Source: a plasmid. Taken from it: DNA of 64,000 nucleotides. Where the stretch lies: assembly GCF_053078305.1 (NCBI RefSeq), contig NZ_CP166875.1. The stretch is one strand, 5' to 3'. The translations under genes were made by a program, and so were the position numbers. Position 1 is the stretch's first letter. Every line of letters starts with the position of its first letter. The notes under the pieces are model-generated. The model saw only the letters and a program-made list of their open reading frames with translations, made no database searches and was not told the DNA's origin. This document shows, piece by piece, positions 1-39,250 of this stretch.

Positions 1-8
1 TGGATGTT

Positions 9-1067
9 ATGTCCCGGACAGTGGGGATCCTCTGGTTGATTCTGCTTCCCATGACATTCGGCTTTCTGTGGATGTGGTTTCACCATCCGGCCCAGCCCCG
101 TTTTACCCGCAGGCCACTGAATATCCACACACTGCCCCATATTTTTTCAGCTCTGTCACCGGCGATCGCCCCCGTTCTGGCTGATGGAGACAACAACAGA
201 CTCTTCCACGGACAAAAACGTCCCGAGCGCCGTGTCGCACTAACCCCCGAAGTCTTTGTGGAGCAGAACAACCTTATCCGCAACATGCAGCTCGATGTTG
301 CGTCCACACGCCAGTGCTTCATGGCGCAACTGGGGCAACCACTGACCAGCTGGAAAGACATGGCCCCACATGAAAAAGCGCTCTTTGCCATCTTTGGCCT
401 GCAGTTCTTCCTCGGTGACCGGAAAGCAGCGGTAGCCCTGATGAACAACCTCAATCTCTCCTGCAGGCTCAAAAGTAAACGGGACCAGGGGCGTTTCAGC
501 ACGCCGGTGTATTCACTGGCCAGAAACGCCTTTATCCGGGTCATCAAAACAGAAGGCGCACAACAGTGGCTCAGGCAGCACCGTTACGTTCGCAGCGGTC
601 TGGTCTGGCTTTACGCACATGATTTGCGCCTGACGCCTCCGAACTGGCTGTGGCTCAAGGGCGTTGACCGGACGCTCTTCTATGCCCTTCACCGGGCAAA
701 CACCACAAAAGGCTTCATCGAAGGGGCCGGCGTGGTGGCCGTTGCCCGGGCAGAAAATGAAGCCAGCCGTCTCGGCCTCCCCTGCCCGGAACCCTGTGTG
801 GAAGAGGCCATTGAAGGGCTTCGACGGGACATGCTGGGGCTGGGCCTGATATGGGACGAACCTCAGCCAGATCGCGATCGTAAACGTCAGATCAGGACCC
901 GCTGGTCACTCACGGATGACGTGATACCCCGCCGCCATGATAACGACGAAGACACTGACACTGGTGAAACCACCGAAACCACCGAAACCACCGAAACCAC
1001 CGAAACCACCGAAACCACCGAAACCACCGAAAAACAGCATCCCGCCGACAAGGAAAAAGAACAATGA
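9..1067 (+). CDS. trbA: TrbA-like conjugative transfer protein (I-type transfer region); N-terminal hydrophobic segment, C-terminal acidic (ETT)n repeat
   Basis: ATG at 9 confirmed in sequence; first gene of a three-gene set that ends opposite nikB as in IncI/IncL-M plasmids; assignment by synteny, not by motif. Confidence 0.45.
   Translation: MSRTVGILWLILLPMTFGFLWMWFHHPAQPRFTRRPLNIHTLPHIFSALSPAIAPVLADGDNNRLFHGQKRPERRVALTPEVFVEQNNLIRNMQLDVASTRQCFMAQLGQPLTSWKDMAPHEKALFAIFGLQFFLGDRKAAVALMNNLNLSCRLKSKRDQGRFSTPVYSLARNAFIRVIKTEGAQQWLRQHRYVRSGLVWLYAHDLRLTPPNWLWLKGVDRTLFYALHRANTTKGFIEGAGVVAVARAENEASRLGLPCPEPCVEEAIEGLRRDMLGLGLIWDEPQPDRDRKRQIRTRWSLTDDVIPRRHDNDEDTDTGETTETTETTETTETTETTETTEKQHPADKEKEQ
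964..1030 (+). repeat. 9-bp tandem repeat (gaaaccacc) x about 7, encoding (ETT)n inside trbA
   Basis: Directly visible perfect tandem repeats in sequence. Confidence 0.9.
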
Positions 1068-2188
1068 CCATCCACTACACTGCAACACTGAATAATAAAC
1101 ACCTGTCCCTGACCGCCCTGTACCCTGACGGTAATCGGGAGGTGATTGCCATCCTGCCGGTAACAGAACTGGGCGCACTGATTAACCGTAATAACAGGCT
1201 GATGCACCTGTCCTTCAGTTCCCCTTTTCGCGAAATAACCGAAACGGTGCTTGTTGATACCGTTGATGCAGAACGTCCCGGACATCACATCGGCAGAATG
1301 CTCTCAGCGATTGATGCCTGCCTGGATGCCGAATATGCCGGAAAAGGAAAACATCCCTCCCGGAAATATGGCTTCTGGCGGACACTGATGTGTGGCTTTA
1401 TCGCCGGAATTGCTCTGCCGGCGACAGTTGCAGGTTACCACTGGATGAAGGCAGAGCCCCCTTCCACGCTGGCTTACCCTAAATCTCAGGAATGGAGAGC
1501 TGAACCAGTAACCGACACAGAGACACCACGCCCACATACGGAACATCATGTTAACAGCATCCCGGCCCGCCCGGCTCCCACACAGCAGGAACCTTCTTCT
1601 GCCCCCGCCCCGACGGCAGTGACGGAAGAACAACACGTTCAGGCCGCTGAGGCCCGCCGTAATCTGGCCACAGTACTTAAACGCAACGCAGACCGGGGGA
1701 TGTTCACCATTAACCTGTCCACTGGTCATGAACGCACGCTGTACGCCTTCCTTGACCCCGCATGCATCAACTGCCGTCTGCTGGAACCCGCGCTTAAGCA
1801 ACTGGCCCGGGAATTCAGCGTGGTGATTTATCCGGTCTCCGTGATTGGCGGGGAGTCCAGTACAAAGCGGACTGCTCCGCTGCTGTGTGAACCGGACTCA
1901 CAAAAACGGGCGACCGGATGGCATCAGCTGTATTCCGCTGACAGTGGTATGGCCCCCACCGGCGATGCACCGGCCGCACAGGATGGACAGTGTCTGACCG
2001 CCGCACGTGCTGCCATCGATGTCAATAACCAGGCTTTCCGCCAGTTCGGTTTTGGCGGAACCCCCTGGGTGTTATCAGATACCGGCTGGCACCTGCCGTC
2101 CGGCATCCTGAAAGACGCCACTTCCGTTCGCCTCTTCCTGAAAGCAACAGATAGCGAGGAGTATCACAATGAGCCAGCACCACGTTAA
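1064..2188 (+). CDS. trbB: Thioredoxin-fold DsbC-like disulfide isomerase of the transfer system (TrbB-like)
   Basis: CxxC motif (DPACINC) in a thioredoxin-like C-terminal half; overlaps trbA stop; synteny with trbC/nikB. Confidence 0.55.
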   Translation: MTIHYTATLNNKHLSLTALYPDGNREVIAILPVTELGALINRNNRLMHLSFSSPFREITETVLVDTVDAERPGHHIGRMLSAIDACLDAEYAGKGKHPSRKYGFWRTLMCGFIAGIALPATVAGYHWMKAEPPSTLAYPKSQEWRAEPVTDTETPRPHTEHHVNSIPARPAPTQQEPSSAPAPTAVTEEQHVQAAEARRNLATVLKRNADRGMFTINLSTGHERTLYAFLDPACINCRLLEPALKQLAREFSVVIYPVSVIGGESSTKRTAPLLCEPDSQKRATGWHQLYSADSGMAPTGDAPAAQDGQCLTAARAAIDVNNQAFRQFGFGGTPWVLSDTGWHLPSGILKDATSVRLFLKATDSEEYHNEPAPR

Positions 2189-4469
2189 TCCTGACCTCAT
2201 ACACCGCACGGCCTGGGGAAACCCGCTGTGGAATGCACTGCATAACCTGAACATCATTGGTCTGTGTCTGGCCGGCAGTATCATTACGGCCCTGATATGG
2301 CCACTGGCCCTTCCTGTCTGTCTGCTGTTCACCCTGGTCACCTCCGTGATATTCACGCTGCAACGCTGGCGATGCCCCCTGCGTATGCCCATGACGCTCA
2401 GCCTTGATGACCCCTCCCAGGACAGAAAGGTCAGGCGAAGCCTCTTCAGCTTCTGGCCCACCCTGTTTCAGTATGAAGCAGATGAAACATCCCCCGCACG
2501 GGGGATTTTTTATGTCGGTTACCGCCGTATCAATGATATCGGTCGTGAGCTCTGGCTGAGCATGGATGACCTCACCCGGCATGTCATGTTTTTTGCCACC
2601 ACCGGTGGCGGTAAAACAGAAACCACCTTTGCCTGGCTGCTCAACCCGCTCTGCTGGGGAAGAGGCTTTACCTTTGTTGACGGAAAGGCACAGAACGATA
2701 CCACGAGGACAATCTGGTATCTCTCCCGACGTTTTGGCAGGGAGGATGATATCGAGGTCATCAACTTCATGAACGGCGGAAAATCCCGCAGCGAAATCAT
2801 TCAGAGTGGCGATAAATCCCGCCCACAGTCAAACACCTGGAACCCGTTCGCATTCAGCACCGAAGCCTTCACCGCCGAAACCATGCAGTCCATGCTGCCC
2901 CAGAACGTTCAGGGCGGTGAATGGCAGTCACGGGCGATAGCCATGAACAAGGCACTGGTCTTTGGCACAAAATTCTGGTGCGTCCGGGAAGGTAAAACCA
3001 TGTCCCTGCAGATGTTACGGGAACATATGACGCTGGAAGGGATGGCAAAACTCTATTGCCGTGGCCTTGATGACCAGTGGCCGGAAGAAGCCATCGCACC
3101 ACTGCGAAACTACCTGCAGGATGTCCCGGGATTCGATATGTCACTGGTGAGAACGCCGTCAGCCTGGACTGAGGAGCCCCGTAAACAGCATGCTTATCTC
3201 TCCGGTCAGTTCTCGGAAACGTTCACAACCTTTGCCGAAACCTTCGGGGACGTCTTTGCGGCAGATGCCGGCGACATCGATATTCGCGACAGTATTCACA
3301 GCGACCGCATTCTGATTGTGATGATCCCTGCACTGGACACATCGGCCCATACCACGTCGGCACTCGGTCGTATGTTCGTCACCCAGCAGAGCATGATCCT
3401 CGCCCGTGACCTGGGCTACCGCCTGGAAGGCACAGATGCACAGACCCTGGAAGTCAAAAAATACAAAGGCAGCTTCCCCTATATCTGTATCCTTGACGAA
3501 GTCGGTGCCTACTACACAGACCGCATTGCTGTGGAGGCCACCCAGGTACGTTCACTGGAGTTTTCCCTGATAATGATGGCGCAGGATCAGGAGCGAATTG
3601 AAGGGCAGACCTCCGCCACCAACACCGCCACACTGATGCAGAACGCCGGCACCAAATTCGCCGGACGCATTGTCAGTGACGACAAAACGGCAAGAACGGT
3701 GAAAAATGCCGCCGGTGAAGAGGCACGGGCCAGAATGGGCAGCCTGCAGCGCCACGATGGTGTGATGGGTGAGTCCTGGGTGGACGGTAACCAGATCACC
3801 ATCCAGATGGAAAGCAAAATCGACGTGCAGGATTTGATCAGACTGAATGCCGGTGAGTTCTTTACCGTTTTCCAGGGGGATGTGGTGCCGTCAGCCTCTG
3901 TGTATATTCCGGACAGCGAGAAAAGTTGCGACAGTGATCCGGTGGTCATCAACCGCTATATTTCCGTTGAAGCCCCCCGGCTGGAGCGTCTCCGCCGTCT
4001 CGTCCCCAGGACAGTGCAGCGCAGGCTCCCCACACCGGAGCATGTCAGCAGCATCATCGGTGTACTGACAGCAAAACCATCCCGTAAACGTCGTAAAAAC
4101 CGTACAGAGCCTTACCGTATCATTGATACATTCCAGCGCCGGTTGGCAACAGCGCAGACATCACTGGATCTGCTTCCGCAATATGATACAGATATCGAAT
4201 CCCGGGCAAACGAACTGTGGAAAAAGGCTGTGCACACTATCAATAACACAACCTGGGAAGAACGCCGGGTATGTTATATCACACTGAATCGTCCGGAAGA
4301 GGAACACTCCGGTCCTGAAGATATACCTTCAGTAAAGGCGATTCTGAATACCCTGCTCCCCCTGGAGATACTGTTACCGGTCGCTGAAAATAATAAATCG
4401 CAGACAATAAATAATGATCATCCCCAGAAATCATGTGGAGCACAACCAACAACTGACGAAAAATACTGA
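2169..4469 (+). CDS. trbC: Type IV coupling protein (TrbC-like, VirD4/TraG-type ATPase)
   Basis: N-terminal transmembrane helices, Walker A (ATTGGGKTET) and Walker B-like (ICILDEVG); 766 aa; adjacent to relaxase operon. Confidence 0.6.
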   Translation: MSQHHVNPDLIHRTAWGNPLWNALHNLNIIGLCLAGSIITALIWPLALPVCLLFTLVTSVIFTLQRWRCPLRMPMTLSLDDPSQDRKVRRSLFSFWPTLFQYEADETSPARGIFYVGYRRINDIGRELWLSMDDLTRHVMFFATTGGGKTETTFAWLLNPLCWGRGFTFVDGKAQNDTTRTIWYLSRRFGREDDIEVINFMNGGKSRSEIIQSGDKSRPQSNTWNPFAFSTEAFTAETMQSMLPQNVQGGEWQSRAIAMNKALVFGTKFWCVREGKTMSLQMLREHMTLEGMAKLYCRGLDDQWPEEAIAPLRNYLQDVPGFDMSLVRTPSAWTEEPRKQHAYLSGQFSETFTTFAETFGDVFAADAGDIDIRDSIHSDRILIVMIPALDTSAHTTSALGRMFVTQQSMILARDLGYRLEGTDAQTLEVKKYKGSFPYICILDEVGAYYTDRIAVEATQVRSLEFSLIMMAQDQERIEGQTSATNTATLMQNAGTKFAGRIVSDDKTARTVKNAAGEEARARMGSLQRHDGVMGESWVDGNQITIQMESKIDVQDLIRLNAGEFFTVFQGDVVPSASVYIPDSEKSCDSDPVVINRYISVEAPRLERLRRLVPRTVQRRLPTPEHVSSIIGVLTAKPSRKRRKNRTEPYRIIDTFQRRLATAQTSLDLLPQYDTDIESRANELWKKAVHTINNTTWEERRVCYITLNRPEEEHSGPEDIPSVKAILNTLLPLEILLPVAENNKSQTINNDHPQKSCGAQPTTDEKY

Positions 4470-4504
4470 AGGAATACAAATATTTTCTGGTGACCATATC
4501 TGTC

Positions 4505-4545
4505 AATCCGACTGTAAAACCCTGTTCACTAAGTCCGGGGTTTTA
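4505..4545. terminator. Hairpin (aaaaccc...ggggtttt) between convergent trbC and nikB, probable bidirectional terminator
   Basis: Inverted repeat visible in intergenic sequence between convergent genes. Confidence 0.4.
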
Positions 4546-4689
4546 CGGCACACTGGATAAGGGCCGCAGACACGGCCCTTAATTCAGAGTTAACCGGGTA
4601 TAAACTCAATTCAGTGACTACTCCCGCCCTTATTGACGAAGGTTCCTGCCGTTTTGGGGCTGAATCTTTGCACCATCACTTATCCGGGC

Positions 4690-7410
4690 TTACATTCCAG
4701 GTGATGGTGGCTCCCATGTTTTCTCCTGCCGTAACGTATAATTATCATCATGGCTCTCCGATAAACGGGTCTGCTGTCTGATATATTCCCGGTAATACTG
4801 CTCACTGCGTTGACGGTGCAAATCCACGTCCGGACGAGTAATGGTGAAGTGTCCGTTTCCGGTTATTCCCGCTGCATTGTGCCAGGCCACCATTTCTGCA
4901 AACACATCATTAAACTGCTGGTATGAACCTTCCGGCTCAAAACCAAGCTTTCCGTTGCGGCTGAACAGAACTGGCGCAATTAAATCAAGCTTCTCTGCCA
5001 GTTCATTTCGGTCCGTGTGATGGTAGAACACAACCCGATCTCCGTAATCCGTACAGACATTTTTTCCTGTCCGCGTATCCCTGAAATGAACACTTCCATT
5101 TTTCTGAAGACGAGCTTCAAGTTTTGCAACATTATTAAAAAGTGGCGTTCCTCCGGGTTCGCAGAGTACGACACAACGATCAGCATTAGTTGTGCGTCTT
5201 TTATCCTTATTACGCGAGCGACGATCACGATAATCCCAGCCACGTAACTGCGATACTGCAGCCCTGTCTCCCTGAGCCGCCTGTTGTTCCACCCACTGCC
5301 GGTAGGACAAAGGATACCACTTACCCTCCGCAATCAGTGACAACCGCTCTTCCTTCACACTCTCCTTCAGCCTGATCAGCGCCTGCATACGCTGCACTTC
5401 CGCAATATGGTAATGCAGCTTACGCAATTGTGGATCCCGGAACTGCACACGGATATACGCCTTGCGCCGACGGCAGGCAGCATGAATTTCCCGTAACCGT
5501 TCTCCGTAACGTAAGTCGGGTTTACGCCAGTGCTCCTTCCATGCAAGATAACGCGCACGCAAATCTTCCCGCGCAGCTGCACGGGCTTCACGGCGCTCAC
5601 GACGAATCTCAGGATCGCGCCGGAAGCCTGGTTCCACTTCATCACTGGCAGCAAGTTCCGGATTGTAACGACATTCAGGCTTCACCCGTTCGAAAATATC
5701 TGCAGCCGCAATTTCAAATGGCCCGGCCTGAGGCTCGGCACGGGATAACGTCAAATCCGGGTGGATACTGCTGGCCTTCACCGGTGTCAGCTCATGATTA
5801 AACGCATCCACAATCACAAGACCATGATGCTGTTTCTGCAGCATAAGCCCTTTACGCGCAAACATCTCATGACATGCCTGCCAGCTGAAATCCCCGCCAG
5901 CTATCATCTCTTCAATCTGGCTCCTGCACTGAATAAGAGCGTATCCCCACAGACTTTCCTTATCGGAAAACAGTTCACGCTTTATAGCCCCCTGCGGACC
6001 TGTGCCCATCCTCATGCGATACCATTCGTAATCACTGACAGGCTGAGAGCCAATACTGTGTCCCCGGAATCGTTCTCCGGGAACGACCTGAGTAAAAATA
6101 TCCTTCGGTACAGGCTGCCATCCACCATCCAGATCCTGCATATAATCCAGCGTCATTAACGGCCACACACTGTCTGCACGTACTGGTGTCTGTTGTTTAT
6201 CAAATCCATCATGCAGTACCAGATGCCCGTGCTGAATCCCCATCCATAATCCCGCCTCTGCCAGAGTACGGTGTACAGCCAGGCAGCTTTTCAGTTCACC
6301 ATTGCGCGCCATTGCCGGTAAGCGTTCGGCAAAATGACGGCAGGCGTACTGTTTCAGACTCTCCGTTTCTGCCACTTTTTCCGGCCGGATATCAACGTTT
6401 ATGGCTTCCGGATCATAACGACCGGGTGTCCCCACCTGACTGAAAATATCTGTCGGTACAGGCTGATATTCCCCCAGTTTCCGCCCCAGTTTTTCAGCCG
6501 TCCATGACGGTCCGAACGAACTGAGTGCAACACCTTCCCGCGCTCTGTCCCAGCCATCCTTCACCACCAGTTCCCCTTCCTGCATCGTGATATACAGACC
6601 ATCGCTGGCCAGCCGTTTATGCAAAGATAACCAGTCCTGTGCAGGCTCTTCACGCAGCCCGGCAATCGACATCTGAGCAATATATTCCCTGAACGTCTGC
6701 TTTTTCCCGCGTCGCCAGGCATTACGGCGCTCACGTACCAGCGCTGTTTTGCGCACAATACGGTTGCCGGGTGCATGCACAAAGCAGCCATTATCCGGCG
6801 CGAATCCGTGCTTAAGTTCAAGTTCACGACATGCACGGCTGAGTTTTTCCTGGCTCCACGGAAGGCAATTGATATAGCCGGTTTCAGGGTGGACACGATT
6901 CACTGCAACATGTACATGCAGGTTATCCGTGTCTGTATGAACGGCTGCCACATACTGATGTTTTGACAGCTCAAGGGATTTCAGGGTGTGACGCACACAG
7001 TCAAAAAGCTGCTCAGAACGCGGACTTTCGTGCGCAGGCCAGGAGAGAATATAGTGAAAAACAGGATCTGTATCATCTTTGGAAAAATGAGCAAGGTCTG
7101 CTGCTTTCTGCATTTCTTCAGCCGCAGATTCAAGAGACAAACAGTTATGAAAGCAGGTCACACCATAGAAATTCACCCACTGACTGCCGTCTTTCATCAC
7201 ATCAATCAGGGAAACAAATTTTTCATTACGCAGACGTGTTGCATAATCAACAAGACGTCTGAAGCGATTCCGGTGCGGAACCTCACCTTTCACTTCCGTG
7301 TCTGGTCTGAGTTCATCTTCCGGCACATCATCCCGCACTGAGGTGTACGCAATCAGGTCTTCAAAAGAAGACTTTCCGTCGCGTCTTTTTTTCGGAATGA
7401 TGGCATTCAT
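4690..7410 (-). CDS. nikB: MOBP-type relaxase NikB
   Basis: 906 aa; N-terminal relaxase domain with HxDxxxxHxH-type motif (HTDTDNLHVHVAVNRVHPETG); directly downstream of nikA and oriT. Confidence 0.85.
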   Translation of the reverse strand: MNAIIPKKRRDGKSSFEDLIAYTSVRDDVPEDELRPDTEVKGEVPHRNRFRRLVDYATRLRNEKFVSLIDVMKDGSQWVNFYGVTCFHNCLSLESAAEEMQKAADLAHFSKDDTDPVFHYILSWPAHESPRSEQLFDCVRHTLKSLELSKHQYVAAVHTDTDNLHVHVAVNRVHPETGYINCLPWSQEKLSRACRELELKHGFAPDNGCFVHAPGNRIVRKTALVRERRNAWRRGKKQTFREYIAQMSIAGLREEPAQDWLSLHKRLASDGLYITMQEGELVVKDGWDRAREGVALSSFGPSWTAEKLGRKLGEYQPVPTDIFSQVGTPGRYDPEAINVDIRPEKVAETESLKQYACRHFAERLPAMARNGELKSCLAVHRTLAEAGLWMGIQHGHLVLHDGFDKQQTPVRADSVWPLMTLDYMQDLDGGWQPVPKDIFTQVVPGERFRGHSIGSQPVSDYEWYRMRMGTGPQGAIKRELFSDKESLWGYALIQCRSQIEEMIAGGDFSWQACHEMFARKGLMLQKQHHGLVIVDAFNHELTPVKASSIHPDLTLSRAEPQAGPFEIAAADIFERVKPECRYNPELAASDEVEPGFRRDPEIRRERREARAAAREDLRARYLAWKEHWRKPDLRYGERLREIHAACRRRKAYIRVQFRDPQLRKLHYHIAEVQRMQALIRLKESVKEERLSLIAEGKWYPLSYRQWVEQQAAQGDRAAVSQLRGWDYRDRRSRNKDKRRTTNADRCVVLCEPGGTPLFNNVAKLEARLQKNGSVHFRDTRTGKNVCTDYGDRVVFYHHTDRNELAEKLDLIAPVLFSRNGKLGFEPEGSYQQFNDVFAEMVAWHNAAGITGNGHFTITRPDVDLHRQRSEQYYREYIRQQTRLSESHDDNYTLRQEKTWEPPSPGM

Positions 7411-7421
7411 CAGCGATTATC

Positions 7422-7754
7422 TCAGCGTCCCATTAAATCTCTTCGCAGAGTATTAGCGAGTTCTGTAATAGCAACGAGAACCTCTGCATACTCTTTATCT
7501 CCCGTGCGTTTTCCTTCCACAAACAGATGCTTCTGCAGGCGACCAAGACGCATCAGCTCTTTCAAAAACTCTTCGTCAATGCGGGCATTTATCTGTTTTC
7601 CCAGCACAGTTTTTCTTATCAGAGTTGAAACTGTCAGTCCGTTTTTTTCTGCCTTTTCTCTAACAATCTCAGCCTCTTCTGGTGAAAAACGAACAGCAAT
7701 GAGGACATTCTTTTGCCGTTTCTCACTGCCACTTCGGGTTTTCTTCTCACTCAT
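7422..7754 (-). CDS. nikA: Relaxosome accessory protein NikA (ribbon-helix-helix)
   Basis: 110 aa basic RHH-like protein immediately upstream of the relaxase, adjacent to oriT hairpins. Confidence 0.8.
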   Translation of the reverse strand: MSEKKTRSGSEKRQKNVLIAVRFSPEEAEIVREKAEKNGLTVSTLIRKTVLGKQINARIDEEFLKELMRLGRLQKHLFVEGKRTGDKEYAEVLVAITELANTLRRDLMGR

Positions 7755-7759
7755 GGTCT

Positions 7760-7900
7760 GCTCCTTACCGGGGTGTCGGGGCTAAGCCCTGACCAGGTGG
7801 TAATCGTATAGCCGTGCGTGCGCGGTTATACGATTACACATCCTGTCCCGTTTTTCGGTCCATTATAGCCTGTTATTTTTGTGCATCATAGTCTTATGCA
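7760..7900. other. Origin of transfer (oriT) region with two inverted repeats
   Basis: Hairpin ggggctaagccc (about 7779-7790) and inverted repeat taatcgtatagccg...cggttatacgatta (about 7801-7836) just upstream of nikA. Confidence 0.6.
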
Positions 7901-7980
7901 GACGGCAGAGGCAGGGCGCAGCCCTGCCAGGAGTCAGTTTTTGATGATAAAATCAGACTTCAACATGAAACGGAGAGAAA

Positions 7981-8322
7981 GTGCCAATGGCTTCTAAAAA
8001 ATTTTACTCAGATGATGACATCCAGCTGGCAAAAGCTGCTTTATCAGAATTGCCGGACCTCACCGCTCAACGGAAAACATTGCGTGATTTTCTTGATGCC
8101 ATTCGTGATGACATTATTGTCCTGGTAAGGACAAAGGGTTATGCACTGGCAGATGTTCGTGACACGCTCAAAAATGCAGGGTATGAAGTAGGAGAGAAGG
8201 CACTTCGTGACATTATTCGGGAAGCAGAATCGAAAAAACCATCCCGCCGTTCTTCCTCTAAAACAGCACCTAAAAAGACAGATTCAGGCAGGAAAGATGG
8301 CATCGATATGAACAACAATTGA
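7981..8322 (+). CDS. Hypothetical protein with lysine/serine-rich basic tail
   Basis: ORF with upstream purine-rich stretch; no recognised domain. Confidence 0.35.
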   Translation: MPMASKKFYSDDDIQLAKAALSELPDLTAQRKTLRDFLDAIRDDIIVLVRTKGYALADVRDTLKNAGYEVGEKALRDIIREAESKKPSRRSSSKTAPKKTDSGRKDGIDMNNN

Positions 8323-8407
8323 TGTGACAATGTCACATCGTGTTCTGAGATTATGATGATTACAGAAAAAAAAGCCCCGGCATAAATACCAGGGCTTTTC
8401 TGTTTAA

Positions 8408-9259: not shown

Positions 9260-9284
9260 ATTGTCTCCTCATCGTCACGACTGC

Positions 9285-9645: not shown

Positions 9646-9719
9646 GGCACAACAATGGCATGTGGTGGTCACTGGCACACCACTCCCGCACAGGTGAAAA
9701 CAGAGAAAACCGCACGACA

Positions 9720-9830: not shown

Positions 9831-9835
9831 GTTTT

Positions 9836-10087: not shown

Positions 10088-10117
10088 GCGTGATTCACAG
10101 CCTGGCTGAATGCCAGG

Positions 10118-30009: not shown

Positions 30010-30443
30010 GCCTGACCTCCTTCCGCCATCAGGATATGGATGATGTCACTGACGCTGTATCCCTGTTCATCCAGTGATGCCGCCAGTGCCAGTGAATGGC
30101 TGACAGCTTCCGGTGCAAACCGCCGCTGCACCTGAACCACCGCAAACGGCTCACCACCGGCATTCACCAGAACCAGCACCCAGACCTGAGAGACATCGCC
30201 CGGTGAACATAACGCCAGGTGAAAACGTTCGTGGGCAGGCGTGAAACGGACCTGGACGGGGAAAAAGCCGCCGAACTCGCTGCCGTACTCGCCATTCATC
30301 GTCCAGTTGTCCGGCGCATCCAGTTCCCGCATCACGGCGTGTGTCAGCTCACGGCGTTCATCACTTCCGGCAGCCCGGATATCTTCATATTCCTGTGCGC
30401 TCATGGTCTGTAATACATTCAGGGTCAGTTCAGTTTTCATCAC
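30006..30443 (-). CDS. psiB: Plasmid SOS inhibition protein PsiB
   Basis: 145 aa with the recognised PsiB sequence; overlaps psiA start. Confidence 0.9.
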
Positions 30444-30494
30444 GGTATCTCCCTTGCTGCCGCCCCGTCTCCGGCGGGGCGGTGTGGTTGTTCA

Positions 30495-32513
30495 TCAGGC
30501 GGCATCAGCCAGGTTATCGGCGCGTTCAGTGGCATCCGTCTGTGGACGTGGTGAACCCATCCAGCCAGGCACCCAGCGGTTGTCTTTCATGTGGAACTCT
30601 GCATGTTCAGCGGCATCGCCTTTCTTCATCTTCTCCGCGTCCCGTGCGGCACCGGACAGTCCGGCATCATTCAGGGCATCGATAATCTGCGGCTTTTTCA
30701 GGTGACCGAAGAAGTTTGCTTTTGTCGGCTGCCACCAGTCACGCATGTGAAAGCCGATGGCGCTCTCCAGCGAGTCCAGCGGACTGCGTGACGTGTGACC
30801 ATACTCGCGGGTCTGAACGCCGTGGATGCTGCACGCGGTGCAGAAACTGAGCAGTGATAACAGCACGTCCTGGCTGAGTGACAGGAACGTCGTCATGTCC
30901 CGTGCCCATCCCTCCGGTAACAGGGCAGCAAGACGGGCTTTTTCTGCCATCATCGCCATGAATGCGGCACCGTCCTTCCCCGATGGCGCATCGCTGGTCA
31001 GCGAATAATGTTTACATTCCAGGCTGATTTGTGCTGGTTTACTGTACGCTCCGCTGCCAAACACATTCAGGCAGAGCGTCCATGCCAGCAGTGCCAGAGA
31101 TTTGTCCGGTTGCTGCATGAGTGCCGCCTGGACTGCCAGCGTGCGTTCGGAAGACATTTTCGTCAGCAGTGGCAGACTGATTTCCTCCACTGACGCTTTC
31201 TCCTGCACCTGTTCCGTGCGGTCAGCGTCGTCAGTCACGTCATCTTCACTGCGCAACTGCACACCACGCTGGACACACACATTACCGTAACGCCAGGACA
31301 CCACCACGCCACTTCCGGCACGCATCTCCGGCGTCCACGCCCTGACCTTCGCCATGCAGTCAATCAGCTTCATTTCTGCTGCCAGCAGGTCAGATTCCTC
31401 ACACTGGTTTTCCAGCGCGTCGTAACGCATCATCAGTTCGTTCAGGCGTTCTTCTTCTGCCTCCGTCAGCACCGCTTCCGGCTCCGGCAGGTTGCGGTAT
31501 GCCCGGGAATCTTCACGGCACTCACCGACAGGCTCCATGCGTCCGGCGCACCATTCCCAGCCTTCGGCTTCCCGAAGGTGTTCAGCGACAGCCTGGAGTT
31601 TTTCCAGCAGGGCGGCATCGAGCGCCACGCAGTCCACATAGCCACCCTCGTCATCGCTGAACAAATCAGTACGCAGTTCGTCAGGTGAGAAAGCATCAGC
31701 CCCCACGAAGCGGAATTTAGTGTTGTCCTTCACCGCCACTTCACTTTCCGTAATCAGATTGCGGATAACCCGCACATCCGGTTTACCGCCCCATCCTGAC
31801 TGGCAGGCCGCTTCAAACACCTGCACCTGACGCGCGGTGTCGTTCTCCAGCGCCAGCGCCTGACAGTGCTCGGTGGTGATGCGGTCTTCTGCCAGCGCAT
31901 CGAGGATGACAGGCGCAAGGTCTGCCAGTTTCAGCATTCGCTGAACGTGGCGGGGCGAATAACCCAGCAAATCACCGATTTGTGCAGGTGTTTTGCCTTC
32001 CTGCGCCATTGCACGGAATCCGGCAATCTGTTCGGCAGGGTGCATATCCCGACGATGACCGTTCTCGGTCATCGATGCGGCAGTCGCCAGCTCCTGCGGA
32101 ATGACCTTCACACGGACAGGCCAGTCAACCTGAATGATGTCACGCTCTGCCAGCATGTTGAGTGCTGCCAGTCGGCGACCACCTGCGGCGACACCGTAAC
32201 GGTCACCTGGCAGGGCATGAACAACCAGATTCTGTAACAGGCCGACACCTTTAATGGAGTCCGCCAGTTCGCTGACGGACTCCGCAGAATACGGCACCGT
32301 GCGCACATTCAGCGGAGACTTAATCAGCGAGGCCAGCGGCACGCTCACTTCCTCCGTCTGCGCCAGCAGGGCCGACAGGACTGTTTCCTGCGTTTTTGCA
32401 GGTTTACGGCTGGATTTACGCTCCGTTTTTGCCTTAGACTCTGTAACTGACATAGTTAGTACCTCCCAAAACGGTAATAATGATTGTCTGCCGGACGCGT
32501 TCCCGTCCGGCAC
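30495..32513 (-). CDS. ParB-like nuclease-domain protein of the leading region
   Basis: About 650 aa; ParB/Srx-like N-terminal domain; conserved position between ssb and psiB; start may be the internal ATG (MSVTESK). Confidence 0.7.
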   Translation of the reverse strand: MPDGNASGRQSLLPFWEVLTMSVTESKAKTERKSSRKPAKTQETVLSALLAQTEEVSVPLASLIKSPLNVRTVPYSAESVSELADSIKGVGLLQNLVVHALPGDRYGVAAGGRRLAALNMLAERDIIQVDWPVRVKVIPQELATAASMTENGHRRDMHPAEQIAGFRAMAQEGKTPAQIGDLLGYSPRHVQRMLKLADLAPVILDALAEDRITTEHCQALALENDTARQVQVFEAACQSGWGGKPDVRVIRNLITESEVAVKDNTKFRFVGADAFSPDELRTDLFSDDEGGYVDCVALDAALLEKLQAVAEHLREAEGWEWCAGRMEPVGECREDSRAYRNLPEPEAVLTEAEEERLNELMMRYDALENQCEESDLLAAEMKLIDCMAKVRAWTPEMRAGSGVVVSWRYGNVCVQRGVQLRSEDDVTDDADRTEQVQEKASVEEISLPLLTKMSSERTLAVQAALMQQPDKSLALLAWTLCLNVFGSGAYSKPAQISLECKHYSLTSDAPSGKDGAAFMAMMAEKARLAALLPEGWARDMTTFLSLSQDVLLSLLSFCTACSIHGVQTREYGHTSRSPLDSLESAIGFHMRDWWQPTKANFFGHLKKPQIIDALNDAGLSGAARDAEKMKKGDAAEHAEFHMKDNRWVPGWMGSPRPQTDATERADNLADAA

Positions 32514-32518
32514 CTCTC

Positions 32519-32794
<276 letters not shown>

Positions 32795-32809
32795 TCACAG
32801 TCAGGCCAG

Positions 32810-33337
32810 TCAGAACGGGATATCGTCTGAAAATCCGTAATCCTCCCCCTCCGGCGGCTGAGGCTGAGGCTCGGGCTGCGCGGCCTTACGTCCACGGCCT
32901 TTCGTTTTCGCGCCACTTTTTTTCGTCGCGTCAGCACTCTGTGGCTGCCCATTCTGCTGAGGCTGCGGTTGTGCCTGAGCGTTCTGCTGTGGTGCAATCC
33001 CCAGCATCTGCATGGTGCCCGTGGTCTTAACAAGAATTTCAGTGACGTAACGGGTGATACCGTTATCTTCCCAGCTACGGGTTCGGAGTTGCCCCTCGAT
33101 ATAGACCTGCGCGCCCTTGCGCAGATATTCACCAGCCACTTCCGCGAGCTTGCCGAACAGCACCACGCGGTGCCATTCCGTCTGCTCCCGCATCTCCCCC
33201 GTCTTTTTGTCGCGCCAGCTTTCTGATGTGGCCACCTGCAGGTTTGCCACTGCGCCCCCGTTGGGGATGTAACGGACCTCCGGATCATTGCCCAGACGCC
33301 CGACGAGGATGACCTTGTTGATACCACGTGCACTCAT
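32810..33337 (-). CDS. ssb: Plasmid single-stranded DNA-binding protein
   Basis: 175 aa; OB-fold N-terminus, Gln/Pro-rich linker and C-terminal acidic tail DDIPF. Confidence 0.9.
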
Positions 33338-33394
33338 GAGAACCTCCTGACTGAAAGATGTGAGATAAACCGGATACCGGAGACGGGACGTTCA

Positions 33395-33850
33395 TATGCC
33401 CCTTCAGAGGAGCGAAAGCTCCTCCTGCCGTCCACTTCTTCGGGGTTTCTCCCCGCAGTGGACCTTTCCGATGGGGGCCCGTTTACCGCCTCACGGGACA
33501 GCTGTCCGGGGGCGGACGCAAAATTTTTTGCCGGGTTCATGGCTAAAAATTTTGTGGCCGGTATATCTTCCCCTGGACTGATGGAACGGGAGGTGGTTAC
33601 GTCTGCCCCCCGGAAAGTCCACAGCGGGAAACAGGCCGCAGAGGTGGCGGCAGAAGAGGAGCGCAGGCCACGGCGCGACAAAGGCGGCGCGACCGTTCCG
33701 GTCGCTGCAAGCCCGGGTTTTCACGCATCGGACCGTAGCGACAGCCCGAAACCGCGCCAGCGGGTTCGGCGGAGACTGGCGGGTGCGCCAGCAGTTGCCT
33801 GTCGGAGTCGGGCCTGACGACCGGATGCCGCCAGGCAGCCGGGAGCCGAA
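33395..33850 (-). repeat. Repeat family A copy 4 (upstream of ssb)
   Basis: Nearly identical to copy A1 over about 250 bp. Confidence 0.6.
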
Positions 33851-34037
33851 GGGGCGCATGTGTAAGAAGGTTCTTTAACGACAGGTCTGTAACAGGTACT
33901 TCCTGAAACAACGCCTGTCACCAACAGGAAGGGTAACGGGCGACGCGCCAGCGTGGCCCGCATCCCTTCCGGCAGGCGCCAGCCTGCCAGGGGTTTTCGC
34001 GCGGGCTGACAGGCGGCCTCCACCGCCTACCCCTGTA

Positions 34038-34229
34038 TCACCTGTGCCTGCTGCCCTGAAGGATGTAGTGACCACCGAGGAAAACCGCCTGCTGATTCGC
34101 CACAAAATCACAGATTTCATCAACAATCTGCGCGGTGGTGAGCGGTTTCTGCCCCATTTCACGACGCCGCGCATTAATCACGGCTTTGTAATTGCGCAGA
34201 ATTTCGCGGGTTTCCGTGCTGATATTCAT
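34038..34229 (-). CDS. Hypothetical small protein
   Basis: 63 aa ORF in leading orientation. Confidence 0.3.
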   Translation of the reverse strand: MNISTETREILRNYKAVINARRREMGQKPLTTAQIVDEICDFVANQQAVFLGGHYILQGSRHR

Positions 34230-34648
34230 TACCCGTTCTCCCCGTCCAGCGCCTGACGCATTACCCGCATAATCTCACGTTCTTCCCTGACAAATGCGTC
34301 ACCGTCGCCCCCGTTCTCGCTCCCTACAGCATGGAGGCGATAAATTTCACTACCAGCCATCACCATCACTTTTTCCAGCAGCACCGCAGGGACTGTTACA
34401 AGACGGTTTACGCGCTTTTCCTCCATCAGTTCATTGACAATATCGGAAACAACTCTGTCACATGCGCCATATACAAAAGCATCGTCCAGCCGCTGCATGA
34501 CGGTTTCCAGCTCATCGTCTGACAGGTTCCAGTCCCGGGCTATGTGGCGCACATCCCCGCGGGTCAGCACCACGGCAAAAACACATTCACTGTCCGGCAC
34601 GTCTGTATTCAGCACTTCGCGGATAATTTCTTTAACAGTACAGTACAT
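34229..34648 (-). CDS. Hypothetical leading-region protein, paralog of 15118-15552 (DUF1380-like)
   Basis: Shares start and RxVTVPAxLL region with the first copy. Confidence 0.45.
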   Translation of the reverse strand: MYCTVKEIIREVLNTDVPDSECVFAVVLTRGDVRHIARDWNLSDDELETVMQRLDDAFVYGACDRVVSDIVNELMEEKRVNRLVTVPAVLLEKVMVMAGSEIYRLHAVGSENGGDGDAFVREEREIMRVMRQALDGENG

Positions 34649-34694
34649 GTTCTCGTCTCCTTTACAGGGGCGGCATTGCCGCCCCGTCCGTTAA

Positions 34695-35120
34695 TCAGTC
34701 CAGTGCCGCGTAAATCGCGTTACATTCGGGGTGAAATTCGATGTGGCTCCACAACTGCGCATCGCGCATCCGGTAAAGCTGGGTCAGTCCTGCATCCCCG
34801 CTGTCGTGGTACAGCCACAACTGGCGGTTAATCACAAGGGAAGTCAGGATGATACCTGCGGCATCAGCACTCACAGTGCGGTCAAACCAGTTTTCACCGT
34901 TGACCAGATGAAAACGGTCGCCATCCGGCATCATGTAACCGCCACCGTCCGGCAGGCGGATGAAATGCCAGAAGCCTCCCTGATATTCCGGCATCATTTT
35001 TTGCGCCAGCGCGTACACATACGCCTCGGCATACAGAAAATCGTTGCCAAACAGGTAAGGCAGAAAGGAGAGACGGTCGCACTCTTCAACGTTCAGAGTG
35101 ACAGATTTCGCATACTGCAT
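34695..35120 (-). CDS. Antirestriction protein, KlcA/ArdB family
   Basis: 141 aa from ATG at MQYAKS with RBS ggagg; family assignment from memory; preceded by repeat B2. Confidence 0.6.
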
Positions 35121-35139
35121 GGGATTTCCTCCGTTGTTC

Positions 35140-35335
35140 ACATATTCCGCGACACCGGGCGGTGCCGTGCCTCCAGAAAAGCCGGGCGATAAGGCGGGGA
35201 TGCAAGGGCGCAAGGGAAGCCGCAGCCTGACGCACACGGCTGGCGGGAGTTGGAGGGTGAGACCGCGAAATCTGAGCGGGTGAACGACCGGAAAATCACG
35301 GCAGACGGGAAGGAGGGACCGGGTGACCGCCGCGT
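35140..35335 (-). repeat. Repeat family B copy 2 (upstream leader element of the KlcA-like gene)
   Basis: Near-identical to 13905-14100. Confidence 0.6.
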
Positions 35336-35746
35336 GCACATTATATTCAGCGCCACATCCGGTAGCCTGCGATATAACACAGTTATCCTGTCAGTAAGAG
35401 CAGGTATGATGAATACACGGAGATTAAAAATATAATCTCCGTCACATGTTACCCCCGGAAACCGGTAACGCCGTCACGGGAAAGACGTGACAGAAAAAGC
35501 AGCCTCCGTTACTCCAGGTATCAGAAGGCTGAATAATGCATGAGACTTTCTTTCTTATGTGTCTGGTCAGGCTGGCTGACCAGCGTTTTTAGTAACACAT
35601 AGCCATATGTGTATTAAGCCACCTCATCTTATTTTGTTGAATTGATCACAATTCAACGGTTTATTTTTGGCGTGATGTGTGAGCCGTTATTCATCCCGGC
35701 ATGGAATTCATGCAATAACGAAAAGTAATCAGTGACGGAGAGTAAA

Positions 35747-36208
35747 ATGAAGAAATATATACCACTGGTATTATTTGTTTTTTCATGTCAGGTATTTTCT
35801 GCTGATATTCATGGACGGGTTGTGCGTGTTCTGGATGGCGATACCATTGACGTTATGTTATCTCAGCATCCGGTGCGTGTCCGTCTTGTTAATATTGATG
35901 CACCTGAAAAGAAACAGGACTATGGCCGGTGGTCTGAAAAAATAATGAAATCTCTGGTTGCGGGAAAAACGGTTACTGTCACATATTTTCAGCGAGATCG
36001 TTATGGTCGTATTCTCGGGCAGGTTTATGCACCAGACGGAATGAATGTTAATCAGTTTATGGTCCGTGCAGGCGCTGCATGGGTTTATGAGCAGTACAAC
36101 ACCGATCCTGTTCTTCCCGTCCTGCAGGGAGAAGCACGACAGCAGAAACGTGGTCTGTGGGCAGACAGCGCTCCTGTTCCGCCCTGGGTATGGCGCTCAC
36201 GGAAATAA
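35747..36208 (+). CDS. nuc: Secreted thermonuclease-family (SNase-like) endonuclease
   Basis: Signal peptide (MKKYIPLVLFVFSCQVFSA), SNase-like motifs; RBS ggagag; AT-rich. Confidence 0.7.
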   Translation: MKKYIPLVLFVFSCQVFSADIHGRVVRVLDGDTIDVMLSQHPVRVRLVNIDAPEKKQDYGRWSEKIMKSLVAGKTVTVTYFQRDRYGRILGQVYAPDGMNVNQFMVRAGAAWVYEQYNTDPVLPVLQGEARQQKRGLWADSAPVPPWVWRSRK

Positions 36209-36295
36209 TGATATTTCTGTGGCTATTGAGTTCTCATTGAAATGCGATATTTAAAAGTATGAAGCATATTACATTATTAACTTATTTCTCTGTTA

Positions 36296-36694
36296 ATGAA
36301 AGGTGAACAAATGAACTATCAGGCAGTATCAGAATTAATCACATCGTCTAATCATAATGTTCTTATTGTGGGGGACTCAGCTTCTGAAGTTGATAGCTTT
36401 TTAAATAAACTGAATATTACTGATTATAAGTATTATGATTTCAGCCAGATTTACAGTTGTTCTGACAGAACATTAAATGATTATGCGGTTATTTTTATCA
36501 GGGATGCACTGAACGCCAGTGAGCATATTATTATTTTTAATTGTACAGGATGGCCTGATTTGAATAATGAATCTGCCGTCATGCAGTTTGCCAGAGTGGC
36601 ACGAAAATCAGGAAAACAACTGATAGTCGCAGTAAGAGAACAGGATATGAAAAAAATGGAAGCAGAGTTTGGAAGGATCATAAAAATCCACTGA
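36296..36694 (+). CDS. Hypothetical AT-rich protein
   Basis: 132 aa ORF; no recognised domain. Confidence 0.35.
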   Translation: MKGEQMNYQAVSELITSSNHNVLIVGDSASEVDSFLNKLNITDYKYYDFSQIYSCSDRTLNDYAVIFIRDALNASEHIIIFNCTGWPDLNNESAVMQFARVARKSGKQLIVAVREQDMKKMEAEFGRIIKIH

Positions 36695-36973
36695 CGCCTT
36701 CGCGTTGCTCAGTTGTCCAACCCCGGGGACGGGAAAAAGCAAGTTTTCCCCGCCCCCGGCGTTTCTGTAGTGAAAAGCGGGAAATGGAGGGAATGGTCAG
36801 TAACAGGGAATGTGGTATTATCGCGGCGGGTGTCTGAGCCTTTCTGGTTCAGGCAAGACGCAGGTACTAGAAATGCGAAGACCCCACTTGTTAATCCATT
36901 AACTCGTGAGGCCTGCATGAAGTACTTGAACACTACTGATTGTAGCCTCTTCCTTGCAGAGAGGTCAAAGTTT

Positions 36974-37123
36974 ATGACGAAATATGCCCTTATCGGGTTG
37001 CTCGCCGTGTGCGCCACGGTGTTGTGTTTTTCACTGATATTCAGGGAACGGTTATGTGAGCTGAATATTCACAGGGGAAATACAGTGGTGCAGGTAACTC
37101 TGGCCTACGAAGCACGGAAGTAA
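36974..37123 (+). CDS. srnB: Hok/Gef-family type I toxin (SrnB/PndA-like)
   Basis: 49 aa MTKYALIGLLAVCATVLCFSLIFRERLCELNIHRGNTVVQVTLAYEARK; leader ORF starts at about 36917. Confidence 0.75.
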   Translation: MTKYALIGLLAVCATVLCFSLIFRERLCELNIHRGNTVVQVTLAYEARK

Positions 37124-37406
37124 GCTGCCGGGCGGGGACGGAAGTCCCCGCTTTCCGGAAGTGTGAGGTATTTCAGGGGCAGACACCCGACATGCCAGAA
37201 ACCGCCGGTCCCGCCCGGGGCCGGCACACAGGTTAAGGCATTTCCTGTTTTTCAGCCATTTCGCAACAAAAATCACATTAAACAACAGTAATCACCGTTG
37301 ATTTGTGCGCCAACACAGATCTTCGTCACAATTCTCAAGTCGCTGATTTCAAAAAACTGTAGTATCCTCTGCGAAACGATCCCTGTTTGAGAATTGAGGA
37401 GGCGAG

Positions 37407-37667
37407 ATGTCGCAGACAGAAAATGCAGTGACTTCCTCATTGAGTCAAAAGCGGTTTGTGCGCAGAGGTAAGCCTATGACTGACTCTGAGAAACAAATGG
37501 CCGCTGTTGCAAGAAAACGTCTTACACACAAAGAGATAAAAGTTTTTGTCAAAAATCCTCTGAAAGATCTCATGGTTGAGTACTGCGAGAGAGAGGGGAT
37601 AACACAGGCTCAGTTCGTTGAGAAAATCATCAAAGATGAACTGCAGAGACTGGATATACTAAAGTAA
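37407..37667 (+). CDS. copB: IncFII replication regulator CopB (RepA2)
   Basis: 86 aa with the recognised RepA2 sequence ([23 protein letters not shown]...). Confidence 0.85.
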
Positions 37668-37754
37668 AGACTTTACTTTGTGGCGTAGCATGCTAGATTA
37701 CTGATCGTTTAAGGAATTTTGTGGCTGGCCACGCCATAAGGTGGCAGGGAACTG

Positions 37755-37850
37755 GTTCTGATGTGGATGTACAGGAGCCAGAAAAGTGAAAACCCCGATA
37801 ATCTTCTTTAACTTTGGCGAGTGAGAAAGATTACCGGGGCCATCTAAAAA
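37755..37850 (-). ncRNA. copA: CopA-type antisense RNA (replication control), inferred
   Basis: Imperfect long stem-loop (ccccgataatctt...aagattaccgggg) in the repA leader between copB and tap; position as in IncFII replicons. Confidence 0.4.
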
Positions 37851-37890
37851 CCGTATAGCCAACAATTCAGCTATGCGGGGAGTATAGTTA

Positions 37891-37965
37891 TATGCCCGGA
37901 AAAGTTCAAGACTTCTTTCTGTGCTCGCTCCTTCTGCGCATTGTAAGTGCAGGATGGTGTGACTG
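37891..37965 (+). CDS. tap: RepA leader peptide Tap (RepA6)
   Basis: 24-codon [27 protein letters not shown] whose stop overlaps the repA start. Confidence 0.7.
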
Positions 37966-38816
37966 ATCTTCAACAAACGTATTACCGCCAGGTAAAGAAC
38001 CCGAATCCGGTGTTTACACCCCGTAAAGGTGCCGGAACGCTGAAGTTCTGCGAAAAACTGATGGAAAAGGCGGTGGGCTTCACCTCCCGTTTTGATTTCG
38101 CCATTCATGTGGCGCATGCCCGTTCGCGTGGTCTGCGTCGACGCATGCCACCGGTGCTGCGTCGACGGGCTATTGATGCGCTGCTGCAGGGGCTGTGTTT
38201 CCATTATGACCCGCTGGCCAACCGCGTCCAGTGTTCCATTACCACACTGGCCATTGAGTGCGGACTGGCGACAGAGTCCGGTGCAGGAAAACTCTCCATC
38301 ACCCGGGCCACCCGGGCCCTGACGTTCCTGTCAGAGCTGGGACTGATTACCTACCAGACGGAATATGATCCGCTTATCGGGTGCTACATTCCGACCGATA
38401 TCACGTTCACACCGGCGCTGTTTGCCGCCCTTGATGTGTCTGAGGATGCAGTGGCAGCTGCGCGCCGCAGCCGTGTGGTATGGGAAAACAGACAGCGCAA
38501 AAAGCAGGGGCTGGATACCCTGGGTATGGATGAGCTGATAGCGAAAGCCTGGCGTTTTGTCCGTGAGCGTTTCCGCAGTTACCAGACAGAGCTTAAGTCC
38601 CACGGCATGAAACGTGCCCGTGCGCGCCGCGATGCAGGCAGAACCCGCCAGGACATTGTCACCCTGGTGAAACGGCAGCTGACGCGTGAAATCGCGGAAG
38701 GGCGTTTCCGGGGAAGCCTGGAGGCCGTGAAGCGCGAAATCGACCGTCGTGTGAAGGAACGCATGATAATGTCGCGTAACAACAACTACACACGGCTGGC
38801 CACTGCCTCCCCCTGA
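37959..38816 (+). CDS. repA: IncFII replication initiator RepA1
   Basis: 285 aa from the start overlapping the tap stop; recognised RepA1 sequence. Confidence 0.9.
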
Positions 38817-38829
38817 GTTTTACCTCATC

Positions 38830-39250
38830 TGAATAATCCGGCCTGCGCCGGAGGCATCTGCACGCCTGAAGCCTGTCAGCGAACAAAAAAACAGCACCAC
38901 ATACAAAAAACAATCTCATCATCCCGCTTCTGGTGCATCCGGCCCCCCTGTTTTCGATACAAAACATGCCTCACTGACGGGGAATTTTGCTTATCCACAT
39001 TTAACTGCAAGGGACTTCCCCATAAAGTTACAACCGTTCATGTCATAAAGCGCCAGCCGCCAGCCTTACAGGGTGCAATGTATCTTTTAAACACCTGTTT
39101 ATATCTCCTTTAAACCACTTAACTACATTCATTTAAAAAGAAAACCTATTCACTGCCTGTCCTGTGGACAGACAGATATGCACCTCCCACCGCAAGCGGC
39201 GGGCCCCGACCGGAGCCACTTTAGTTACAACACTCAGATACAACCACCAG
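38830..39250. other. Vegetative replication origin region (oriR) with DnaA box
   Basis: DnaA box ttatccaca at about 38987, AT-rich stretch downstream of repA1. Confidence 0.55.

Follow-up and report, generated by a model that had tools for sequence, protein, structure and literature searches.

A probable mosaic plasmid with an IncK2/Z-type transfer backbone and an F-type replicon on either side of a Tn3-family element

A stretch of 64,000 nt from one strand of the plasmid contig NZ_CP166875.1 (assembly GCF_053078305.1; hereafter "the window") combines the transfer genes of one plasmid lineage with the replicon of another. Our analysis indicates that the window probably spans a joint in a patchwork plasmid of the E. 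coli type, a genuine mosaic or cointegrate, in which a backbone of the IncK2/Z type (I-complex), a Tn3-family element as the joint, and F-plasmid DNA with an IncFII-family replicon follow one another. The window was mapped by open reading frame listing, by family searches (Pfam, NCBIfam and Rfam) and by comparison with annotated plasmids; plasmid replicon and mobility types are quoted as assigned by MOB-suite. Judged from these alignments, the homology is far beyond chance, with 97-100% identity over kilobases. Among the records of PLSDB and the complete E. coli genomes, the best one covers at most 46% of either positions 17000-41000 or positions 22000-44000, and a 91-nt string taken from the end of the window has no exact match in the GTDB representative genomes.

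The left third of the window (positions 1-22578) carries the I-complex backbone. The genes trbA, trbB and trbC adjoin nikB, and a NikB relaxase of the MOBP class is accompanied by NikA and by an oriT of the R64 type; the first-pass annotation, made from the sequence alone, was right to call this trbABC-nikAB-oriT block I-type. TrbC scores 1011 bits against NF041447, and TrbA is DotM-like in a profile search. The other transfer genes of such a backbone, the MPF_I type IV secretion genes (traA-Y), the thin-pilus pil genes and the shufflon, would be expected upstream of position 1. The 15-nt arms of the oriT inverted repeat are GTAATCGTATAACCG and CGGCTATACGATTAC, and the adjoining GGACAGGATGTG is the complement of an ATCCTG-type nick region, where the nick position is the one we take to apply from oriT sequences of the R64/RP4 type. 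Positions 1-14248 align with the IncK2/Z plasmid pL2-87 at 99.87% identity and positions 13897-22580 at 99.2-99.98%, against only about 97% for generic IncI1/B/O plasmids. The two alignments overlap by 352 bp (13897-14248), and relative to pL2-87 the I-type leading region lacks psiA-psiB-parB-ssb-klcA, about 6.6 kb. The overlap points to recombination between repeated leading-region elements as the event that deleted the 6.6 kb. The same psiA-to-klcA deleted form is present in pRb23_1.

The homology to pL2-87 ends at 22578-22580, that is 0-2 nt from the outer tip of the left inverted repeat of the first of two transposon copies (copy 1) and about 3 kb short of the native replicon of pL2-87. 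Across the break site pL2-87 reads ...TGTATATTGG directly followed by ACAATGAGTC, and continues with a 3'-5' exonuclease gene, yacAB, its own repA and pil genes. This continuation, of which the exonuclease-side sequence past the break is GGACAATGAGTCTC, was not found in the window. The exact protein sequence of the helicase next to the break occurs in 442 blocks of public assemblies, from which 24 contigs were read, and all ten contexts listed show one order, pil - repA (290 amino acids) - yacAB - exonuclease - ProQ - helicase - stbB - parM. The arrangement in the window is thus derived and not ancestral.

The replicon beyond the break comprises CopB, the CopA antisense RNA, a Tap reading frame overlapping repA, and RepA1, and thereby presents the complete copB-copA-tap-repA set of the IncFII family (the Rfam gathering score for CopA, RF00042, is 60 and the cut-off for RepA, TIGR03474, is 447); an annotated F-type relative shows the same tap/repA layout. 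It is the sole replicon of the window, just as the first-pass annotation had it: tblastn with RepE (FIA), RepFIB, the K2/Z RepA and two other Rep proteins found a single match in the window, which is repA. Typing by RepA identity alone was rejected, as the protein is about 91% identical to both K2/Z and incFII-family RepA (91.2% to the native RepA of pL2-87, 90.9% to that of the F-type C3 plasmid A). The copA sequence is 100% identical to that of pSTEC639_5 ('IncFIC'), 85.9% identical to that of C3 plasmid A, whose RepA is annotated as incFII family, and matches the RepFIC copA of F partially. The exact RepA protein is very common, and each of the ten contexts listed for it has traI-traX-finO-SNase-hok-copB-tap upstream. 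In pL2-87 the control region scores 166.7 bits for PK-repZ, has a sub-threshold CopA match of 34.6 bits and is devoid of copB; within the window, neither PK-repZ nor PK-repBA, the controls of I-complex replicons, matched at the gathering score. The control regions (CopB/CopA versus PK-repZ), together with the 99.4% identity of the flanks to F plasmids, mark the replicon as foreign to the K2/Z backbone.

F-type DNA extends well beyond the replicon. Over positions 35589-60608 the order is largely that of the F plasmid pFHI_NMBU_11_02, kept in blocks of 98.4-99.4% identity, and to the right of the second transposon copy (copy 2) positions 47467-60608 are 99.4% identical to the same plasmid.

Any scenario in which an ancestral, uninterrupted I-complex backbone natively uses an FII-like (IncZ-type) replicon, with no fusion at all, has to be weighed at this point. 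The RepA identity of 91.2% and the 87% identity of the repA-ori DNA between the window and pL2-87 (native repA at 18779-19651 in L003 numbering) speak for it, and the RepA of IncZ is said to be FII-like, reportedly according to Praszkier and colleagues in 1991. Against it, the native control is PK-repZ without copB while the window has CopB and CopA, with a copA fully identical to that of an F plasmid; the SNase-hok and toxin-antitoxin genes around the replicon are 99.4% identical to F plasmids; the transposon and an ISCro1 remnant part the replicon from the K2/Z DNA; and the native helicase contexts, all ten of those listed, differ from the window. A native combination of this replicon with this transfer backbone is also what the first-pass annotation had named as the finding that would overturn its reading, and none came to light. 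The control regions, the copA identity and the RepA and helicase contexts refute the ancestral scenario, to which we attach next to no probability.

The DNA between copy 1 and the replicon starts with a remnant of ISCro1 that is 99.92% identical to the ISCro1 of pCT (IS66 accessory TnpA, 1e-88). It lacks 1.35 kb of tnpC, and the truncated TnpC product has no entry on record. We considered whether this ISCro1 shares its insertion site with that of pCT or of pEC6-1/2a; the positions differ, and the idea was rejected. Then follows a second leading region, whose DNA is 94.6% identical to F and 96.7% to C3 plasmid A. Its PsiA is 64% identical to the PsiA of pL2-87 and pCT and 95% to that of the psiA-psiB-ssb leading-region copy on pEC6-1/2a (IncC); at the DNA level psiA is 95-97% identical to F and C3 plasmid A versus 68-76% to pL2-87. 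Against the proteins of F, PsiB reaches 96.5% identity and the ParB-like protein 97.7%, and positions 31250-32450 are 100% identical to F. The ssb allele alone is I/K-like (97% to pL2-87), and the stretch 32750-33950 is nearer to I/K types. We also considered that this region might be the missing part of the I-type leading region, relocated; this was rejected, as its psiA DNA is 73.7% identical to pL2-87 compared with 99.9% for the rest of the backbone. The I-type leading region of the first-pass annotation, given as ardA/psiAB/ssb, is therefore upheld for ardA; psiAB and ssb lie inside the transposon-bracketed segment, with PsiA and PsiB of the F type. The F-like psiAB/ssb genes share a strand with the leading genes of the I type and, entering from the I-type oriT, would be oriented for early expression. 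At 35341-35343 the SNase-hok-rep module is joined to the distal end of this second leading region, and the relative order of the two is inverted compared with F. By its sequence the 16.6 kb between the transposon copies is a piece of F DNA, rearranged and devoid of F transfer genes, and not a whole backbone.

The two transposon copies, each 3900 bp long, 100% identical and in direct orientation, do bracket the replicon, in line with the first-pass annotation. Inverted repeats of about 38 bp that start with GGGG, a DDE transposase (TnpA) of about 1000 amino acids, and a serine resolvase with a spacer of 144 bp, the size of a res site, place the element in the Tn3 family (transposase 605 bits, resolvase domain 5e-38). 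Its left inverted repeat begins with GGGGGTTCGCGCCCATTTCC... and its right-end sequence (right inverted repeat, IRR) is GGAAATGGGCGCAGAACCCC. The element, 3.9 kb and unnamed, circulates among plasmids of E. coli, E. albertii and Salmonella. Copies 100% identical to it reside on two plasmids of strain FHI_NMBU_11, an IncF plasmid and an untyped one of 34 kb (pFHI_NMBU_11_03), the latter with a 5-bp duplication, AACAT. The identical copies elsewhere and this clean duplication identify the element as mobile.

All four junctions in the window lie at transposon tips. ISCro1 homology begins exactly where the right inverted repeat of copy 1 ends, and both flanks of copy 2 likewise stop at the repeat tips, which implicates the transposon in the joining. 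Copy 1 has K2/Z intergenic DNA on its outer side and ISCro1 tnpC on its inner side, and copy 2 has one unrelated hypothetical gene on both sides. The 5-bp flanks read ATATT - copy 1 - TGTAT and AAAAA - copy 2 - ACTGT. No pairing of the four matches, and a 5-bp target-site duplication is absent at both copies in the window. Copy 2 is flanked by a direct duplication of 126 bp (42943-43068 = 46969-47094, one mismatch) of hypothetical gene DNA, where 5 bp would be expected, and the divergence from the reference plasmids drops from about 7% to less than 1% at the start of the duplicated block.

Tn3-family elements form cointegrates by replicative transposition, and two identical direct copies around the only replicon could be read as both joints of a one-step replicative cointegrate, with later deletions having erased the duplications and most of one partner. 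Such an event would leave cross-matched 5-bp duplications and flanks that are adjacent in the target, and neither was found for the copies in the window. The inner flanks (TGTAT/AAAAA) and the outer flanks (ATATT/ACTGT) mismatch and are situated in unrelated DNA (ISCro1 tnpC, K2/Z intergenic region, hypothetical gene), and the scenario calls for no fewer than two additional deletions, each with an end exactly at a transposon tip. The four unmatched flanks mean that the two copies are not the joints of a one-step cointegrate, and we hold this scenario to be very unlikely. The transposon-mediated fusion of two backbones proposed in the first-pass annotation hence survives in part: the different ancestries and the joints at transposon tips agree with it, but the unmatched flanks and a bracketed segment that falls short of a backbone do not.

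An assembly artefact has to be considered as well. Identical repeats of several kilobases are a classic cause of misjoined plasmid assemblies, and a normal IncK2/Z plasmid plus one or more F plasmids, each with the identical transposon, could have had their flanks misjoined across the repeats. The copies are 100% identical over 3900 bp, too long for short reads or inserts to bridge, none of the four flanks has a partner, and strain FHI_NMBU_11 carries the identical element on two separate plasmids as well as an F plasmid with the same cargo. The joint of K2/Z DNA with the transposon was seen in no other sequence of PLSDB, of 5426 complete E. coli genomes (701-bp probe) or of the JGI (Joint Genome Institute) metagenomes (junction string). 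On the other side, the 126-bp duplication and the junction at 35341 are not across repeats and show that real rearrangement took place in the lineage; true recombination between copies would produce mismatched flanks just as readily; and the window holds no positive sign of misassembly. Taken together, an artefact appears unlikely.

Several observations weigh against the mosaic that we favor. No 5-bp flank pair matches, and hence no single transposition event is documented in the window; resolution would be expected of a direct pair of copies in which tnpR is intact and the spacer has the size of a res site; the partner junction, IRR followed by ATATTGGACAATGAG..., is not in the window; the join is backed by no independent assembly, as its K2/Z-transposon joint was found nowhere else; and the order of events is one that we infer.

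For the probable mosaic the following scenario may be drawn. A pL2-87-like backbone would supply the NikAB/oriT relaxosome and TrbABC, the ardA leading region that enters first, and partition by ParM/StbB. It would have been broken, at the transposon end, between the ProQ-like gene and the exonuclease-yacAB-repA block. Beyond the transposon would come the ISCro1 that held it, then the F-like psiAB-ssb leading region oriented like the I-type one, and last the IncFII-family ('IncFIC') replicon with hok/sok and three toxin-antitoxin pairs, with F-type cargo past copy 2. By one route, replicative transposition from an F-type donor with its copy in ISCro1 into a K2/Z plasmid would have formed the joint, the partner copy lying outside the window; under such a third-copy cointegrate the partner joint would read GGAAATGGGCGCAGAACCCC + ATATT/TATTG + GGACAATGAG. 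By the other, a K2/Z plasmid and an F plasmid that both carried the transposon would have recombined. The K2/Z-transposon-ISCro1 joint could have arisen by either route, which the window alone could not separate. Further exchange between transposon copies may have given copy 2 its 126-bp flanking duplication. Within the window, RepA under CopA/CopB/Tap control would drive replication and the I-type system would drive transfer.

A bolder version, which we regard as conceivable but doubtful, is a natural replicon swap in which the K2/Z replicon was lost and the plasmid became wholly dependent on the captured F-type replicon, with CopA/CopB control in place of the RNAI/pseudoknot system. If true, incompatibility and copy control would have changed with I-type transfer kept, and the two copies would persist unresolved, perhaps under selection, because resolution would part the transfer backbone from the only replicon.

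Table 1. Features of the window (strand left empty where none is given).
Feature	Position	Strand	Remarks
trbA, trbB, trbC	1-4469	+	I-complex transfer genes; trbB 1064-2188 (DsbC-like), trbC 2169-4469; trbA 5' end cut by window edge
nikB relaxase	4690-7410	-	TraI/MobA(P) MOBP relaxase, 5e-124
nikA	7422-7754	-	MobA/NikA-type ribbon-helix-helix (RHH) protein, 1.5e-32
oriT core	~7800-7850	.	15-nt inverted repeat and adjacent ATCCTG-type nick region; read from sequence
I-complex leading region	8408-18119	-	DUF4942, Rpn, ardA, hypothetical, DUF1380, DNA methylase, DUF1281; Pfam hits
ardA	13389-13970	-	Pfam ArdA, 3e-29
Hypothetical gene, I-type leading region	14303-15073	-	
DNA methylase	15788-16471	-	
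DUF1281 gene	16856-17797	-	
parM	18389-19360	+	maintenance block 18389-22183, 99.98% identical to pL2-87
stbB	19360-19923	+	maintenance block
UvrD-like helicase	20034-21560	-	maintenance block
ProQ/FinO-like gene	21557-22183	-	maintenance block
Tn3-family copy 1	22579-26478	+	tnpR 22636-23229 (-), putative res 23230-23373, tnpA 23374-26412 (+)
ISCro1 remnant (IS66 family)	26479-27799	-	tnpA, tnpB, first part of tnpC; truncated by copy 1
Second, mostly F-type leading region	27979-35343	-	sok, psiA, psiB, parB-like, ssb, DUF1380, KlcA-like
sok RNA, second leading region	29013-29184		
psiA	29290-30009	-	
psiB	30006-30443	-	
parB-like gene	30495-32513	-	
ssb	32810-33337	-	
DUF1380 gene, second leading region	34229-34648	-	
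KlcA-like antirestriction gene	~34695-35120	-	
F-plasmid replicon module	35341-41092	+	99.4% identical to p_STEC1585_2, 98.5% to pSTEC639_5 (both MOBF/MPF_F, 'IncFIC')
SNase	35732-36208	+	followed by hypothetical gene
hok/sok module	sok 36828-36984	+	
copB	37407-37667	+	NF010256, 4.4e-41
CopA RNA	37784-37874	-	Rfam RF00042, 98.9 bits; between copB and repA
tap	37892-37966	+	24-codon reading frame; overlaps repA GTG start (37959) by 8 nt
repA	37959-38816	+	TIGR03474, 581 bits
oriR, inferred	~38817-39250		
RelE/HTH toxin-antitoxin pair	39728-40343		
RHH/ParE toxin-antitoxin pair	40532-41085		
F-type variable region	41269-43068	.	second post-origin copy 41269-41668, PIN/Phd pair, left part of hypothetical gene interrupted by copy 2
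PIN/Phd toxin-antitoxin pair	41876-42606	-	
Tn3-family copy 2	43069-46968	+	identical to copy 1, direct orientation

Both leading regions contain repeats of about 200-330 nt (9304-9631, 12708-13035 and 33407-33660; 13014-13208 and 33658-33852; also 28361-28430). As single-stranded DNA, the plus strand of positions 9300-9640 is predicted to fold into a hairpin of about 190 nt (-102.6 kcal/mol, z = -10.7). The repeats are candidate single-strand promoters of the Frpo/ssi type and were probably the substrates of the psiA-klcA deletion. A further direct repeat of 330 bp (96%; 16482-16811 and 17788-18116) flanks the DUF1281 gene; just past this repeat pL2-87 has a group II intron, of which there is none in the window.

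The sequence that follows the replication origin recurs as a direct repeat of 279 bp (94%; 39387-39663 and 41269-41547) on either side of the RelE/HTH and RHH/ParE pairs, which suggests that these toxin-antitoxin pairs were inserted or duplicated by recombination at the repeat. Inverted repeats of 121 nt (97% complementary; 41737-41857 and 47299-47419) bracket the PIN/Phd pair and the transposon-bearing gene, and the segment between them is inverted with respect to pFHI_NMBU_11_02.

The F-type cargo to the right of copy 2 includes, on the minus strand at 47578-49575, genes for a NudI-like hydrolase, a deoxynucleoside-kinase-like protein and a radical-SAM protein of 288 amino acids. The radical-SAM protein hits PADLOC pVip ('viperins associated with kinases', 1.6e-30) and is a candidate for a plasmid-borne prokaryotic viperin; the cassette is also found on pFHI_NMBU_11_02 (99.4%). 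A lipid-synthesis-like cluster at 54635-59902 (-) encodes a bifunctional alpha/beta hydrolase/SAM methyltransferase, a lysophospholipid acyltransferase and a phosphatidate cytidylyltransferase; at its fourth gene (57947-58558) the matching DNA of related plasmids is annotated with a CDP-alcohol phosphatidyltransferase, and a DMT transporter gene is next. Plasmids of E. coli, Enterobacter and Citrobacter share this cluster. Positions 60593-64000 hold one more Tn3-family element, the third in the window and unrelated to the other two (recombinase 60780-61412, transposase running off the window end); many plasmids of E. coli and Salmonella have copies of it at 98.8% identity.

Among known plasmids, pL2-87 (NC_025145.1, IncK2/Z) shares the order of trbABC, nikBA, oriT, ardA leading region, parM/stbB, helicase and ProQ over 22.6 kb; the window differs in lacking psiA-to-klcA and the group II intron, and in having the Tn3-family element where pL2-87 has exonuclease-yacAB-repA(K2/Z)-pil. 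In p_STEC1585_2, pSTEC639_5 and pFHI_NMBU_11_02 (IncFIA/FIB/FIC, MOBF) the SNase-hok-copB-copA-tap-repA-toxin/antitoxin module is 98.4-99.4% identical to that of the window. In those plasmids traI-traX-finO precede it; in the window it comes after the distal end of a leading region, the relative order is inverted, and there are no F tra genes. Tn3-family cointegrate intermediates likewise have two identical direct tnpA-tnpR copies with GGGG-type repeats at the joints between ancestries; unlike these, the window is without cross-matched 5-bp duplications, shows a 126-bp duplication at one copy, and brackets a fragment only.

A parallel in architecture is pCoo (NC_007635.1) of enterotoxigenic E. 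coli, which unites on one molecule an I-type RepA, a MOBP relaxase, a copB-repA FII replicon and F remnants. Its PLSDB record is typed IncI-gamma/K1 plus an FII replicon, and ISCro1-like and IS100 elements lie near its joints, which presumably are IS100 copies and not a Tn3-family element. At the level of records the likeness is one of shared modules, the sequences otherwise not being closely related to the window, and pCoo retains an I-type replicon whereas none was found in the window. By the title of its description, pCoo is 'a mosaic cointegrate' (Froehlich et al. 2005, as given in the reference list of PMC10433428). Hybrid plasmids have also been described that arose via IS26 and Tn6952, a composite transposon with Tn3-family remnants (PMC8193513). 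I-complex/FII hybrids are thus already known (e.g. pCoo), and the window is a real but ordinary mosaic. What the window adds is a backbone like that of pL2-87 (IncK2/Z) joined to a replicon of F type (FII/FIC), with an unnamed Tn3-family element of 3.9 kb at the joint, an element seen here at joints between plasmid backbones. For a plasmid with I-type transfer and an F-type replicon, replicon typing by itself would give the wrong bin, and the plasmids that it could coexist with or exclude may be other than those expected from its transfer type.

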